In this document: piece by piece, positions 13,720-32,816 of the stretch | Layout of the letters: each line of letters opens with the position of its first letter | Numbering within the stretch: position 1 is the stretch's first letter | IMG/VR virus record: IMGVR_UViG_3300029873_000010 | Span: 1-43,338 of that record | Source of the DNA: a virus | Length of the DNA stretch: 43,338 nucleotides | Strand: one strand, 5' to 3' | The notes under the pieces: generated by a model | Told to the model about the DNA's origin: nothing | The model's input: only the letters and a program-made list of their open reading frames with translations | The model's database searches: none | Program-made: the position numbers and the translations under genes

Positions 13720-13746
13720 AACATAAAAAACAATCGTTTTTATGCG

Positions 13747-13780
13747 GGGGATACAATTAAATGTATCCCCTTTTTTATTT
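13747..13780 (+). terminator. Rho-independent terminator ending the late (head-tail-lysis) operon
   Basis: Perfect 9-bp stem GGGGATACA/TGTATCCCC, 6-nt loop, then TTTTTTATTTT. Confidence 0.85.
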
Positions 13781-13956: not shown

Positions 13957-14445
13957 ATGGAAATTTGGAAAGATGTACCGGGGTATGCCGGAAAATATGC
14001 GGTTAGTTCATACGGTCGCATAAAATCAGTAAAGAGCGGTTTAATACTAAAACCAACGCAAAAGGTTTGCGGGGGTCTGCAATTAAAATTGAGTAAGGAC
14101 GGGAAAGTTACGACCGTTCAAGTTAGCCGGGTTGTCGCAATGGCATTTATACCGAACCCGGATAATAAACCAAACGTTGACCATATCGACGGGGTGCGGT
14201 ATCATAATTTCGTCGAAAATTTGCGTTGGTGTACGCAGGACGAAAATATGAATTATGAATTGGCGATTAAGAATAAAACCCGATACAATGATAAAATACA
14301 AGGTTTAGGATATGACGGAAAAGTGGTTGTTGAGTTCGCTAATTATAAAGAGGCGGTTAAAAAGGGGTTCAATCGGGCATTGATAAAAAAGAGTATCGAC
14401 ACGGGAAAGCCATACAAAGGAATTTACTACAAACACCAAAAATAA
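13957..14445 (+). CDS. Free-standing HNH homing endonuclease (NUMOD4 plus HNH_3-like)
   Basis: EIWKDVPGYAGKYAVSSYGRIKS (NUMOD4-like) and VDHIDGVRYHNFVENLRWCTQDEN (HNH-like). Confidence 0.85.
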   Translation: MEIWKDVPGYAGKYAVSSYGRIKSVKSGLILKPTQKVCGGLQLKLSKDGKVTTVQVSRVVAMAFIPNPDNKPNVDHIDGVRYHNFVENLRWCTQDENMNYELAIKNKTRYNDKIQGLGYDGKVVVEFANYKEAVKKGFNRALIKKSIDTGKPYKGIYYKHQK

Positions 14446-14456
14446 AAGAAAATTCT

Positions 14457-14487
14457 TTTGGTATTTAAAATAATAGTTGTATATTTG
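14457..14487 (+). promoter_or_regulatory. Bacteroidota sigma-A type early promoter
   Basis: TTTG(14457-14460)-N19-TATATTTG(14480-14487). Shares TTTTGGTA(T/A)TTAAAA with the promoters at 15950 and 21844. Confidence 0.7.
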
Positions 14488-14500
14488 CAGTACGATAATA

Positions 14501-14522
14501 CAACGATGGGGCGTTTTCCCCG
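14501..14522 (+). promoter_or_regulatory. Leader box plus hairpin (CAACGA, then U-GGGG / CGTTTT / CCCC-G)
   Basis: Lies 13 nt after the -7 box and 21 nt before ATG 14543. Homologous to 21888-21909 with a compensatory stem change. Confidence 0.6.
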
Positions 14523-14542
14523 GACAATTAGAGAGCGTAACA

Positions 14543-14794
14543 ATGAATACTCAAAGCATTTACAACGGATTAGCATACACAACAAGTGAAATTAACCGCA
14601 ATTACAAAATCAAGGTTGCCGGAATGGTAAACGGGAAAAAGGTTAATATGTTGGTAGGGGTTGCCGGATTAATCCGCATTGTCGGCGACATTGAATTGGT
14701 TAACCGTCTTTTAAACCGTGCGTTCAACTGTTACGGCGACAAAGAGGTTTGCAAATTGCGCCGAGGCGTCAAAATTACGTTCTATTATTCGTAA
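14543..14794 (+). CDS. Hypothetical early protein
   Basis: 83 aa from the first ATG downstream of the promoter and leader. The track ORF begins at TTG 14477, inside the promoter. Confidence 0.6.
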   Translation: MNTQSIYNGLAYTTSEINRNYKIKVAGMVNGKKVNMLVGVAGLIRIVGDIELVNRLLNRAFNCYGDKEVCKLRRGVKITFYYS

Positions 14795-14795
14795 C

Positions 14796-14827
14796 CAACG
14801 ACCGGGCGTTTTCCCGGCAACAAATAA
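14796..14827 (+). promoter_or_regulatory. Intercistronic copy of the CAACGA-CCGGG-CGTTTT-CCCGG box
   Basis: CAACGACCGGGCGTTTTCCCGGCAACAAATAA lies between the stop at 14794 and ATG 14839. The 22-nt core is identical to 21888-21909. Confidence 0.6.
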
Positions 14828-14838
14828 TATTTTCAAAA

Positions 14839-15171
14839 ATGAAATCAGATGTTAACGGCGTAAGCCAATGCCAAAAAGGAACCGAGAATTACGAAACGTT
14901 TTATACGACAATCAGACGTAAAAAAACAAAGTTGGTGCAATACGATTTTCGTAATGAGGACGGCGAATTGTTCACGTGCGTAAAGCCAACATTAACCGAA
15001 TGCCGAAAAGCAAGGGACGAATATTTTAAACCCGTCGTTGTGGTTTATACCCCGGAGCAATTCAAAGAATTAGGATTTGACGGGGAAATTGCAAAGTATA
15101 TGCGAGAACATACCAATACGGCAATCGTCGGCGATATTCCCGGAGTTGACCGCCCGTGTTGTTACTTATGA
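14839..15171 (+). CDS. Hypothetical protein with a DUF3873-like N-terminal region (tentative)
   Basis: 110 aa from the ATG 21 nt after the hairpin. YETF...VQYDFRNEDGELFTCVKPTLTECRKARDEYF matches my recollection of the Bacteroides DUF3873 family. Confidence 0.5.
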   Translation: MKSDVNGVSQCQKGTENYETFYTTIRRKKTKLVQYDFRNEDGELFTCVKPTLTECRKARDEYFKPVVVVYTPEQFKELGFDGEIAKYMREHTNTAIVGDIPGVDRPCCYL

Positions 15172-15981: not shown

Positions 15982-16004
15982 CAGAACAAAAGATTAACAG
16001 CCTA

Positions 16005-16021
16005 CCCGGAGGGATACCGGG
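16005..16021 (+). promoter_or_regulatory. Leader hairpin CCCGG / AGGGATA / CCGGG
   Basis: 5-bp GC stem lying 23 nt after the -7 box and 7 nt before ATG 16029. Confidence 0.45.
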
Positions 16022-18280: not shown

Positions 18281-18483
18281 TGTTATGGTTTGCAAATGCG
18301 AGGAAAGCAAAAAGCCAATAGAACAACGAAATTGAACGGTTTTACAATTAAAATGCAATTATTCCGCTTTTAACGGTCGCCGATATACGCCAAGCGATTA
18401 CAGTTGTGTGCATTGTAATTCATGCCGGGCGGTATGGCGCACAAAAAGCGATTATGTTATAAAATCAGTAATAAAAAAGAGCG

Positions 18484-21774: not shown

Positions 21775-21812
21775 ATCCCGGTACGCTTTGCGCCGTATCG
21801 GGATTATTTTTT
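21775..21812 (+). terminator. Rho-independent terminator
   Basis: ATCCCGGTACG / ctttgcgc / CGTATCGGGAT: 11 bp including one G-U pair, followed by TATTTTTT. Confidence 0.8.
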
Positions 21813-21843
21813 ACCCTAATATGAAAAAATAAAAAGAAAAAGT

Positions 21844-21874
21844 TTTGGTAATTAAAATATTTACCGTAATTTTG
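21844..21874 (+). promoter_or_regulatory. Bacteroidota sigma-A type early/middle promoter
   Basis: TTTG(21844-21847)-N19-TAATTTTG(21867-21874). Confidence 0.7.
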
Positions 21875-21887
21875 TGGCATGAAATAA

Positions 21888-21909
21888 CAACGACCGGGCG
21901 TTTTCCCGG
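21888..21909 (+). promoter_or_regulatory. Leader box plus hairpin CAACGA-CCGGG / CGTTTT / CCCGG
   Basis: Lies 13 nt after the -7 box and 17 nt before ATG 21927. Confidence 0.6.
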
Positions 21910-21926
21910 AAATAAAAACCAAGAAT

Positions 21927-22136
21927 ATGGATACATTAGAAACAGCAAAACAGACAAAAACGGCTTATTTCATTGAGTACGTTTACCCAATCGACGTATA
22001 CGGCAAACAGTCGTTTTATTTTCAGTTGGTACGAACCAAAGATTGTGCGATATTATACGCCAATGAAAATATAAATAATGTTTTTATAGCGTGTTGGAAA
22101 ATGGATATTTCGCATAAAGACGTAACGATATGGTAA
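21927..22136 (+). CDS. Hypothetical early protein
   Basis: 69-aa ORF directly after the promoter-leader cassette. Confidence 0.55.
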   Translation: MDTLETAKQTKTAYFIEYVYPIDVYGKQSFYFQLVRTKDCAILYANENINNVFIACWKMDISHKDVTIW

Positions 22137-22321: not shown

Positions 22322-22339
22322 GCCGGGGGAAACCCCGGC
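22322..22339 (+). promoter_or_regulatory. Intercistronic GNRA hairpin GCCGGGG / GAAA / CCCCGGC
   Basis: 7-bp GC stem lying 16 nt upstream of ATG 22356. Confidence 0.45.
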
Positions 22340-22355
22340 ATAAAAGAGCGAAAAA

Positions 22356-23807: not shown

Positions 23808-23829
23808 GGGGGGCGGGTTCCCGTTCCCC
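23808..23829 (+). promoter_or_regulatory. Intercistronic GC hairpin
   Basis: GGGGGGCGG / gttc / CCGTTCCCC: 9 pairs including two G-U pairs. Lies between the stop at 23801 and ATG 23846. Confidence 0.35.
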
Positions 23830-23845
23830 CTTAATAGCAAAAACA

Positions 23846-26430: not shown

Positions 26431-26436
26431 AACCGA

Positions 26437-26461
26437 GCCGGGCGTTCCCGGCAACAAATAA
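26437..26461 (+). promoter_or_regulatory. Intercistronic hairpin box variant GCCGGG / CGTT / CCCGGC plus AACAAATAA
   Basis: The 3' half CCCGGCAACAAATAA is identical to 14813-14827. ATG 26473 lies 20 nt after the stem. Confidence 0.55.
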
Positions 26462-30468: not shown

Positions 30469-31168
30469 GTTAAACCCGTTTGATGCGGAATTGTTGGTTA
30501 TGATTGGCGATATTGCCAAAAGCCAACCGGAGGTCGAGGAAAAACCCGACCGTTACGAAATCACGGTTGACACAACCGAGATACAGGGAAACGCAATTGA
30601 AGCACTAAAACAGGCAGTCGCCGGACGATTGGGGAAACGCTTGTTAGTTACCCACACGTTAGACGCCGCCGTTGTTTTCAACGTCGAGTACGACCCGACG
30701 GAATACCCGGAACAAATCCGCACCCGGTTAGTTGAGCCGGACGCCACGGCGGGAACCCGATATTGCCGCACGTTGTTAGAAGTTGACGCAATACAGGTAC
30801 GCCGGGACAATTTGGACGACCTGTTGAGATTTACCGGAGGCGGAACCATGACGATACCGAGAACCCCAAACGGGCGGGCGGTTTATTCGTTCCCGGACGG
30901 CAACGGCATTTTCATTGACGCCCCGGAAACGTACTACATTGTCCGGGAACCGGACGGACGATTGACAACCCGCCCGGAAAGAGAGTTTAACCGGGAGTTT
31001 GAGCCGAAAGGCGTAAGCGTACCGAAAGAACCCGGCGATAAGGGATGCGGGAATTGCGCCAACTTTACAAACGAGGACGTCAACGGGAACGGTTATTGCG
31101 AGGCGTTCAAATGCGAACAATCGTGCGGCGGTATGCCGTGCCAAGAGTACAAACCCAAAAATCAATAA
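30455..31168 (+). CDS. Hypothetical protein with a C-terminal Cys-rich module
   Basis: 237 aa, ending GCGNCANFTNEDVNGNGYCEAFKCEQSCGGMPCQEY. Confidence 0.55.
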   Translation: MTESKLNPFDAELLVMIGDIAKSQPEVEEKPDRYEITVDTTEIQGNAIEALKQAVAGRLGKRLLVTHTLDAAVVFNVEYDPTEYPEQIRTRLVEPDATAGTRYCRTLLEVDAIQVRRDNLDDLLRFTGGGTMTIPRTPNGRAVYSFPDGNGIFIDAPETYYIVREPDGRLTTRPEREFNREFEPKGVSVPKEPGDKGCGNCANFTNEDVNGNGYCEAFKCEQSCGGMPCQEYKPKNQ

Positions 31169-31806: not shown

Positions 31807-31833
31807 AGCCCCGGAAACAAAGCCGGGGTTTTG
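31807..31833 (+). terminator. Rho-independent terminator ending the early/middle region
   Basis: CCCCGG / aaacaaag / CCGGGG followed by TTTTG. The stem can be extended by A-U and G-U pairs. Confidence 0.7.
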
Positions 31834-32141: not shown

Positions 32142-32816
32142 ATGGAAAAATTGAACAAAGGGCGAAAGCCCCCCGGATACAACAAACGTTCCGAGGAACA
32201 AAGGATTTACGATGTACGGTTTTGTGCCGACTTGTTTTTGCGTGGTTATTCGTATCGAGAAATTGCCGACGCATTGAACCGGGATTTGTCCGCCCGTGGC
32301 GTTGGTTATACAATTTCGTTTCAAATGGTTTATTACGATTTGCAACAATGCCTTATCGAATGGAAGCGGGAACGGTTGGAAACAATCGACGAATATGTTA
32401 CGCAGGAATTGCGCAAGTTGGATAAAATGGAGCAACAAGCGTGGGAGGCGTGGGAGGTATCCAAAACCGGAAAGCAGCGCACCAAAGAGAAAACCAACCG
32501 GGGGCGTCCTATCAAAACGGATGCGACCGACGGCGACCCGGAATATTACGGGTATGACGAAACGACCGTTGAAACGTCGGCGGGCAATCCCCGGTTTTTG
32601 GACTTGCTGTTGAACATTCAACAACGCCGGGCAAAGATGTTGGGATTTGATGCGCCCGTTAAAATCGAGATACCCGGATACAACGCCGGGACGGACGACG
32701 ATAAACCGAAATACGATGTTAAGGCAATCCCGGACGACCTGTTGTTTGCCGTCGCCGACAAATTGCAGTCCGCCGAATTTCAAAAGACAATCGCCGAGAA
32801 AGGAGGGGCGCAATAA
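32142..32816 (+). CDS. terS: Terminase small subunit (putative)
   Basis: 224 aa. N-terminal HTH-like segment (GYSYREIADALN), charged central region. First gene of the late operon, upstream of terL. Confidence 0.6.
   Translation: MEKLNKGRKPPGYNKRSEEQRIYDVRFCADLFLRGYSYREIADALNRDLSARGVGYTISFQMVYYDLQQCLIEWKRERLETIDEYVTQELRKLDKMEQQAWEAWEVSKTGKQRTKEKTNRGRPIKTDATDGDPEYYGYDETTVETSAGNPRFLDLLLNIQQRRAKMLGFDAPVKIEIPGYNAGTDDDKPKYDVKAIPDDLLFAVADKLQSAEFQKTIAEKGGAQ

Follow-up and report, generated by a model that had tools for sequence, protein, structure and literature searches.

A 21-nucleotide box-stem-loop element, a candidate mini-pseudoknot, recurs upstream of start codons in a siphovirus genome and its relatives

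Introduction

Which part of a repeated promoter-leader sequence is conserved in a phage genome, and does it act as DNA, during transcription or in the messenger RNA? This question is raised by the viral DNA of IMG/VR record IMGVR_UViG_3300029873_000010, a stretch of 43,338 nucleotides (nt; the whole stretch is called the window here), which represents the nearly whole genome of a siphovirus, a gut phage of Bacteroidales, with all genes on one strand. A preliminary description of the window had pointed to two similar stretches, 14456-14522 and 21843-21909, in which a promoter is followed by a box, CAACGA, and a short hairpin, and had compared them with the nut sites of lambdoid phages and with RegA-type translational operators. 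Here, we analyse the element that these stretches share, a ~21-nt unit whose box is complementary to the loop of the hairpin that follows it. Bacteroidota mostly do not use Shine-Dalgarno-led initiation of translation, and it is poorly understood how their phages control the translation of individual cistrons.

Results

The window holds four clear copies and one degenerate copy of the element

We found four clear copies and one degenerate copy of the ~21-nt element in the window (Table 1). As read from the sequence, a box of 3-4 nt is followed by a single A, the 5' arm of a 5-base-pair (bp) G+C stem, a loop of 6-7 nt and the 3' arm, and the first 3-4 nt of the loop are predicted to pair with the box. 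In element 1, the box AACG (14502-14505) and the spacer A (14506) precede the stem UGGGG/CCCCG (14507-14511/14518-14522) with its loop CGUUUU (14512-14517). Element 3 consists of the box CCU (16001-16003), A (16004), the stem CCCGG/CCGGG (16005-16009/16017-16021) and the loop AGGGAUA (16010-16016); with the preceding base it reads GCCU-A-CCCGG-AGGGAUA-CCGGG. The preliminary description had overlooked element 3 together with its P2-type promoter, a third exact box and hairpin at 14796-14817, which has no promoter and is flanked by a stop codon and the ATG of the following gene, and the degenerate copy at site F. The first base of element 2 lies 2 nt past the stop codon of gene A and its last base 21 nt before ATG 14839; element 5 is also intergenic, directly after a stop codon and 20 nt before ATG 26473. 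At site F of Alistipes phage AS73P1 the loop reads CGGGUU, which gives a CCG/CGG box-loop pairing.

Three copies of the core CAACGANNGGGCGTTTTCCC are present in the window, where 0.11 would be expected. A covariance model built from the copies of relatives and run on the window gave three strong matches (E 1e-8 to 1e-11), and the next match had an E-value of 0.012. Moreover, a structural scan of the window returned five matches on the plus strand, four of them in leaders, and none on the minus strand, compared to a mean of 1.26 matches on both strands combined in shuffled windows.

The element is conserved in related phages and appears to be phage-borne

In each of the five cultured relatives (AS73P1, BKO1-3, PDS1, C1_85S2P and PD491P1), whose hosts belong to Alistipes, Bacteroides and Parabacteroides, the covariance model matched four to five times, with E-values up to ~1e-3, at matching positions and on the gene-carrying strand only. 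The exact core was also present in at least 119 stretches of uncultured viral contigs. Gene A, which lies between elements 1 and 2, has 661 homologues, all of them unnamed. In Elizabethkingia phage TCUEAP2, the locus of the gene A homologue has a promoter of the type found in the window, together with a class-1 element, CAACGA-CGGGG-CGUUUU-CCUCG.

When 185,579 species genomes were scanned with AACGASSGGGCGTTTTCCCSS, 22 stretches were obtained. The contigs with multiple copies and several others are contigs of ~40-57 kb from metagenome-assembled genomes, which we judge to be phage-like by their size, and the remaining stretches, for example in haloarchaea, fit chance. The motif therefore appears to belong to phages and not to host chromosomes.

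Box and loop covary as an additional helix

Conservation and covariation in relatives were both found; the preliminary description had named the covariation test as the most decisive one. The first set comprised 47 distinct 25-nt elements from sites A and B, which flank gene A, picked by their stem alone and scored for the structure.[[[[.(((((]]]]..)))))... with square brackets marking the box-loop pairs. In this set, 96.5% of the cells were paired, compared to 83.2% in shuffled alignments (0 of 500 shuffles reached the observed value), and changes on both sides were seen at seven of the nine pairs. The covariation score was 0.336, against 0.104 for shuffles and at most 0.12 when pairing partners were slid.

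A second table consisted of 34 distinct variants, hand-picked and hand-aligned, from sites A, B, C and E, the P2 leader and TCUEAP2; its register was set manually because MAFFT, applied to mixed 6-nt and 7-nt loops, put a gap inside the stem. Both stem-proximal box-loop pairs are paired in all 34 rows and show four pair types each (G-C 21, C-G 11, G.U 1, U-A 1; and C-G 30, G-C 2, U.G 1, U-A 1), the third pair is formed in 27 and the fourth in 14 rows, and the spacer base is A in 29 variants.

The box and the start of the loop read AACG/CGUU in most copies. The combination (U/A)CCG/CGG(G) was found at site B of BKO1-3 and several viral contigs, at site A of others and at site F, and ACGG/CCGG in two distant viral contigs; site B orthologues in relatives include variant stems as well as the CCG/CGG class. 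The P2-leader sites were located only via the downstream protein, and so without selection for structure. In relatives they carry the box-loop pairs CCU/AGG, CCC/GGG, CCG/CGG and CUC/GAG next to the stems CCCGG/CCGGG, CCGGG/CCCGG, CCGGG/UCCGG and CGCAC/GUGCG. In total there are at least six different box/loop alleles, each of them self-complementary, and copying of whole cassettes between sites therefore does not explain the pattern.

The covariation in both helices is unusually clean for a motif this short. The suggestion that a folded RNA is under selection is borne out by the covariation of the stem in relatives and by the conservation of the element specifically on the sense strand, and the selected RNA fold very probably includes both helices. 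By contrast, CAACGA had been taken for a linear, boxA-like box, a view that does not agree with the pairing and covariation of its bases with the first bases of the loop.

A compact pseudoknot is the most likely fold

If both interleaved helices form, the fold is most likely a compact, tiny H-type pseudoknot. Helix 1 would consist of the 2-4 box-loop pairs and helix 2 of the 5-bp GC stem, with a single A as first connecting loop, no bases between the helices and the remaining 2-4 nt of the loop as last connecting loop. The two helices presumably form simultaneously. In textbook pseudoknot geometry, such short connecting loops are tight but feasible. When nested structures are predicted, three of four leaders have the 5-bp hairpin as their minimum-free-energy structure, and in these three the RNA 3' of the hairpin is predicted to be largely unstructured.

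Two other pairings of the loop were considered and rejected. The minimum-free-energy fold of copy 1 pairs the loop with a downstream AGAGCG (AGAGAGCG) near the AUG, a motif that is absent in copies 2-4. Pairing of the 3' U's of the loop with A's after the stem is possible in only one group of site A sequences, in which it also makes the antisense strand match the structural scan.

The AGAGCG motif occurs 12 times in the window, always on the plus strand, compared to 6.7 occurrences expected for both strands, and lies 0-6 nt before three ATGs (14532-14537, 18478-18483 and 22345-22350). Just 5' of the gene A ATG it is kept as far as Croceibacter phage P2559S (gagagcgaaaATG). Together with the A's on either side, it is the reverse complement of a boxA-like sequence (CGCTCTTT).

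The element is not confined to promoter-leader units

The two stretches of the preliminary description align without gaps, and the identity counted by hand as about 49 of 67 positions is exactly 49, whereas among 200,000 pairs of 67-mers drawn at random from the window the highest count was 35. Both contain the pattern TTTG-N19-TAnnTTTG, exactly 13 nt between it and CAACGA (beginning at 14501 and 21888) and a 5-bp stem with the loop CGTTTT. The stem of the second stretch is CCGGG/CCCGG, so that the reported changes relative to the first are real (U.G versus C-G in pair 1, G-C versus C-G in pair 2), and the gap of 17-21 nt given for stem to ATG measures 20 nt (ATG 14543) and 17 nt (ATG 21927). 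Promoter, spacer, box and stem-loop are thus recovered from the list of parts, but TTTTGGTAWTTAAAA is not a part of its own, as it includes the -33 TTTG. The similarity extends about 18 nt further upstream into an A-rich stretch (Table 1), where alignment shows AAAAATAAAA kept upstream of both copies; the same stretch is found in relatives.

P1, P2 and P3 presumably fire as promoters, and three copies of the element would then be located at about +9 to +30 of the transcripts, if transcription start sites (TSS) are assumed from the -7 box. Each of the remaining two copies takes up the space from a stop codon to the ribosome-binding region that follows. A promoter-leader cassette, as originally proposed, is therefore not the conserved unit: the element is also found without a promoter, in elements 2 and 5, and in one relative it survives with the end of an HNH gene in the place of the promoter. 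The element is retained behind a promoter, behind the end of a gene and behind an HNH gene end alike.

The downstream side is more constant. The distance from fold to ATG is 7 nt in all P2-type copies and mostly 17-22 nt elsewhere, before more than ten different genes. This stretch of 7-22 nt is A/U-rich and, by prediction, largely unpaired in three of the four leaders.

Table 1. Positions of the element copies and of neighbouring features in the window.
Feature	Position	Strand	Description
Element 1 (site A)	14502-14522	+	Covariance-model match, 33.2 bits, E 1.6e-8
Element 2 (site B)	14797-14817	+	AACG-A-CCGGG-CGUUUU-CCCGG; covariance-model match, 40.2 bits, E 7.8e-11
Element 3 (P2 leader)	16001-16021	+	Same architecture, different sequence; ends 7 nt before ATG 16029
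Element 4 (site C)	21889-21909	+	AACG-A-CCGGG-CGUUUU-CCCGG; covariance-model match, 42.9 bits, E 9.6e-12
Element 5 (site F)	26433-26452	+	Degenerate, CCG-A-GCCGGG-CGUU-CCCGGC; covariance model 14 bits, E 0.036
A-rich stretch	14438-14455	+	AAAAATAAAAGAAAATTC, 5' of the -33 element; UP-element-like; common to copy 2 (21825-21842)
Predicted promoter P1	14457-14487	+	Bacteroides sigma-A type, TTTG-N19-TAtaTTTG; pattern match; kept in relatives
Predicted promoter P2	15950-15981	+	TTTG-N20-TAccTTTG, with the same TTTTGGTAATTAAAA extension; pattern match
Predicted promoter P3	21844-21874	+	TTTG-N19-TAatTTTG; pattern match
Gene A	14543-14794	+	83 aa, phrog_32997; between elements 1 and 2
Gene B	14839-15171	+	110 aa, DUF3873; gene at this position varies among relatives
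Gene after P2	16029-16457	+	142 aa; N-terminal strand-helix-helix, C-terminal four-cysteine motif
Gene C	21927-22136	+	69 aa; without family match
Intrinsic-terminator-like hairpin and T run	21775-21804	+	11-pair stem, tail TATTTTTT; closes the preceding unit just before P3

Genes and structures around the copies

The elements are located among small genes of unknown function and replication and recombination genes, in a region with host-type promoters, and from this layout the units are presumably early. The tail/lysis block ends in a strong plus-strand terminator (13746-13771), and so does the first replication block (Table 1).

The gene that follows site B varies among relatives, with N-termini MEKKR.., MKSDV/MKTDL.., MAKYI.. 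and MSSEK.., and the element lies at the junction. In the window, site B is followed directly by the DUF3873 gene, whereas AS73P1 (L001 11388-11663) and PDS1 (L003 2248-2739) carry the MEKKR.. gene at this place; in PDS1, a DUF3873 gene comes after the MEKKR.. gene. Furthermore, genes for HNH endonucleases are found next to the element. An HNH/NUMOD4 homing-type endonuclease gene (13957-14445) is located between the late terminator and P1, the 3' end of an HNH open reading frame (ORF) of PD491P1 (L005 30205-30687) overlaps the element at 30660-30684, and the HNH gene end that takes the place of the P2 promoter beside a retained element was observed in one viral contig.

In many database entries the start of gene A is placed 17-29 codons further 5', so that the element is translated through (e.g. 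'MLIQRRDVFPGTLEGVT-MNTQ...'). Such extended calls include P0117, AS73P1_00008 (L001 11041-11343) and PDS1 gp_5 (L003 1886-2203). These starts are probably misannotated, with the true start at the conserved ATG ~20 nt past the fold.

Small proteins encoded next to the element were considered as its binding partners and rejected. The structure models of the gene A product (predicted local distance difference test, pLDDT, 90.7; best PDB match E 0.46) and of the P2 gene product (pLDDT 90.6; no PDB match) are both confident, and they gave neither a significant PDB analogue nor an RNA-binding candidate. The N-terminus of the P2 gene product resembles a ribbon-helix-helix fold by secondary structure only, and the protein has an invariant CxxC...CxxC motif.

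Other intergenic gaps of the window are structured as well. A 7-bp stem with a GAAA tetraloop (22322-22339), 16 nt before ATG 22356, fills the gap from stop codon to ATG, and a GGGGG...CCCCC fold with the class-2 core GGGCGGGTTCCC (~23808-23830) precedes ATG 23846; structured intergenic gaps may thus be a general feature of this region. Further downstream lies a terminator-like hairpin (31809-31832), CCCCGG-N8-CCGGGG with UUUU behind it. It is succeeded by ~310 nt of purine-rich sequence without a long ORF (to 32141), upstream of a phrog_645 gene (32142-32816), which in relatives is annotated as 'RNase E' or as 'sigma factor'. The purine-rich stretch could serve as a long leader or encode a non-coding RNA.

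Discussion

Our comparison of the copies within one genome and among related phages favours a function of the element at the RNA level over one at the DNA level, because the element is oriented only with the genes, its helices interleave, its copies differ and are yet each self-complementary, and U.G and G.U pairs occur, although these wobbles alone are indecisive, as A.C mismatches are found too (e.g. CGGGG/CCCCA). The spacing to the ATG, the A/U-rich unpaired leader and the retention of the element across different upstream contexts point to a role tied to the downstream cistron. Post-transcriptional or translational control of that cistron stands, in our estimate, about an even chance of being the function. 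The pseudoknot would then act on the downstream cistron after transcription, by forming a structural boundary, or a docking site, through which translation initiation is set or insulated. Alternatively, it might nucleate the binding of a trans-acting protein or repressor that occludes the adjoining ribosome-binding region, as the gene 32 operator of T4 does. In either case, the short A/U-rich unstructured leader 3' of each copy would serve as the ribosome-binding region in these Bacteroidota, which are poor in Shine-Dalgarno sequences.

In the gene 32 pseudoknot of T2 and T4, too, the first connecting loop is a single A. In its closest features, the element is similar to the gene 32 operators of T4 and RB69, in which a small 5' H-type pseudoknot is followed by an unstructured A/U-rich ribosome-binding stretch; a predicted H-type pseudoknot, with covariation in both helices, and an adjoining A/U-rich candidate ribosome-binding region are likewise seen here. 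The T4 operator consists of a 5' pseudoknot of ~28 nt and an unstructured region of more than 40 nt that contains the ribosome-binding site, and the pseudoknot is overlapped by segG, an ORF for a homing endonuclease (PMC535899). In a comparable way, HNH ORFs lie directly next to copies of the element or overlap them. However, the element is smaller (~21 nt), its unstructured stretch spans only 7-22 nt, and four to five copies lie before different genes instead of a single autogenous site. Autogenous control by a single-stranded DNA-binding protein (SSB) does not fit the genes downstream of the copies, which are gene A, the DUF3873 gene, the gene of the strand-helix-helix/four-cysteine protein and a 69-aa ORF; the SSB gene of relatives is located elsewhere, and no copy of the element lies before the SSB gene of the phage.

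Other small translational operators provide weaker parallels. RegA sites are unstructured, AU-rich and overlap the initiation codon. The earlier comparison with RegA does not hold, since the fold described here is G+C-rich and ends 7-22 nt upstream of the ATG, and no RegA-like protein was found among nine ORFs scanned against Pfam and PHROGs. PreQ1-I riboswitches (RF00522) and other small pseudoknots of 5' untranslated regions, such as the rpsO/S15 operator, share with the element a very small H-type pseudoknot near the ribosome-binding region. The second helix of preQ1-I uses the 3' tail. In contrast, the second helix of the element uses the 5' flank, and its tail is not conserved among copies. 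In permissive Rfam scans of the leaders, PreQ1 (12.8 bits) and Hatchet (16.9 bits) were matched far below threshold and rejected. The PreQ1-I match was confined to copy 4 (21889-21928; gathering threshold 39 bits), which has a loop of 6 nt compared to 12 nt in the model, and it is explained by the A-rich tail behind a 5-bp hairpin.

Several observations weigh against translational control by a pseudoknot. Helix 1 has just 2-4 bp, the connecting loops of 1 nt and 2-3 nt are sterically tight, and by nearest-neighbour arithmetic the pseudoknot is marginally stable; the two helices could instead represent alternative folds. The box and loop sequences vary within one genome (AACG/CGUU versus CCU/AGG), which speaks against recognition by one sequence-specific protein, and the occurrence of two spacings, 7 nt and ~20 nt, is awkward for one steric model of initiation. 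Moreover, many variants are kin sequences, so that the counts of paired cells inflate the number of independent events. Upstream of the distant gene A homologues of PD691P6 and Croceibacter phage P2559S no element was found, and the two proteins modelled, the gene A and P2 gene products, gave no match to an RNA-binding fold.

The strongest rival, though in our view an unlikely one, is a role in mRNA processing or stability, in which the structure would mark a site of endonucleolytic cleavage or shield the downstream 5' end or the upstream 3' end from exonucleases, and would thereby let adjacent cistrons decay independently of each other, like the RNase III sites of T7. Such a role would agree with the two copies that lie directly past stop codons between cistrons, with the plain G+C hairpins in other intergenic gaps described above, and with the retention of the element regardless of its upstream neighbour, be it promoter, gene or HNH gene end; a constant shape with a variable sequence would also suit a structural block. 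However, a stem of 5 bp falls far below what RNase III needs, and in the promoter-proximal copies ~8-13 unpaired nt precede the fold (with the usual TSS assumed), which would leave the 5' end uncapped. A simple protective hairpin requires neither conserved box-loop pairing nor a fixed spacing to the ATG. In addition, no nuclease was identified, the 'RNase E' label of phrog_645 being a family name only.

We consider antitermination of the lambda nut or HK022 put type still less likely. Here, the fold of the nascent RNA, with or without a phage protein, would let the polymerase pass the terminators on the replication side. The placement of the copies does recall nutL and nutR, short RNA signals near early promoters and past the first gene that likewise have a 5-bp stem and a small loop: one copy follows each of the three promoters and one lies past the first gene, a strong terminator is located just 5' of P3, and small genes of unknown function lie downstream of each copy. 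The boxB of lambda is a 5-bp stem with a GNRA-like pentaloop. The loop found here, in contrast, is the hexaloop CGUUUU, or 6-7 nt long in other copies, and not GNRA-like, and the 'box' is not linear but pairs with this loop. A search for YGCTCTTTA with at most one mismatch (CGCUCUUUA-like) returned 21 boxA-like matches, every one of them on the minus strand, which leaves the sense strand without a match. A scan for intrinsic terminators gave no convincing one within the operons downstream of the elements, between 14522 and 21775, and no N-like protein was recognised among the small ORFs adjoining the elements, which lack informative Pfam and PHROG matches, or from the models of the gene A and P2 products, which lack a PDB analogue. 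The element is also much smaller (21 nt) than put RNAs, and its tight spacing to the start codons of more than ten different genes is unexpected for a transcriptional signal. The nut-site analogy drawn by the preliminary description is thus not supported. The hairpins themselves were rejected as intrinsic terminators: the sequence after the stems is A-rich, the T run lies inside the loop, and the terminator scan did not call the plus-strand sites.

Repeated motifs of an early promoter and a stem-loop at the edges of small, variable early genes are also reminiscent of the PeSLs of T4-type phages, composites of terminator and promoter with a proposed role in recombination (PMC2839356, PMC4122927). 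The fold described here differs in that it lies in the transcribed leader past the promoter, lacks a U tract, shows covariation of the RNA type and also occurs without a promoter. A function in the DNA itself, either as an inverted-repeat operator for a phage repressor (e.g. the strand-helix-helix protein encoded after P2) or as a PeSL-like repeat at recombination or homing junctions, is highly improbable: CCGGG-N6-CCCGG is an inverted repeat, three copies lie directly downstream of promoters, the gene content after site B varies among relatives and HNH genes abut or overlap elements, but the two inverted repeats interleave with different centres, an arrangement that a pseudoknot would have naturally, that would be unusual for the site of a dimeric DNA-binding protein and that also speaks against the symmetric operator considered earlier, stem and box vary among the copies of one genome with each copy internally complementary, the sense strand shows wobble-type positions, U.G or G.U (in the window as well), the orientation is always that of the genes, some copies are promoterless, and recombination alone cannot account for at least six self-complementary box/loop alleles.

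The statement that no such element had been described for Bacteroidota phages agrees with our searches of Rfam and of the full-text literature. At Rfam gathering thresholds there was no match across the whole window, a tRNA and tmRNA search found none, and no paper joining 'Bacteroides phage' and 'pseudoknot' was found in full text; the genome paper of ATCC 51477-B1 reports predicted promoters only, and the single-cell study of Bf12P1 concerns a different phage group.

We tentatively suggest that the element could represent a class of cis-regulatory RNAs that is specific to phages and has not been described before. Its members would be 21-nt mini-pseudoknots of the 'box-A-stem-loop' type, placed at a constant distance from the start codon, and would serve as a dedicated device for translation initiation in hosts without Shine-Dalgarno-led initiation, although this wider proposal is a good deal less certain than a role in the control of the downstream cistron. 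Such a device might be a docking or stand-by structure for the 30S subunit of Bacteroidota or for protein S1. It might also be the operator on which a new translational regulator of the phage acts. If so, early and middle cistrons would gain context-independent, temporally controlled translation. Our analysis also illustrates that a nut-like combination of box and hairpin can turn out to be a pseudoknot. Gut phages of an abundant family carry the element right beside start codons, as does a phage that infects a pathogen of the Flavobacteriales; the element therefore provides a handle for studies of post-transcriptional control and for a better annotation of gene starts, and it may be useful as a source of compact insulating or regulatory parts for synthetic biology in Bacteroides.

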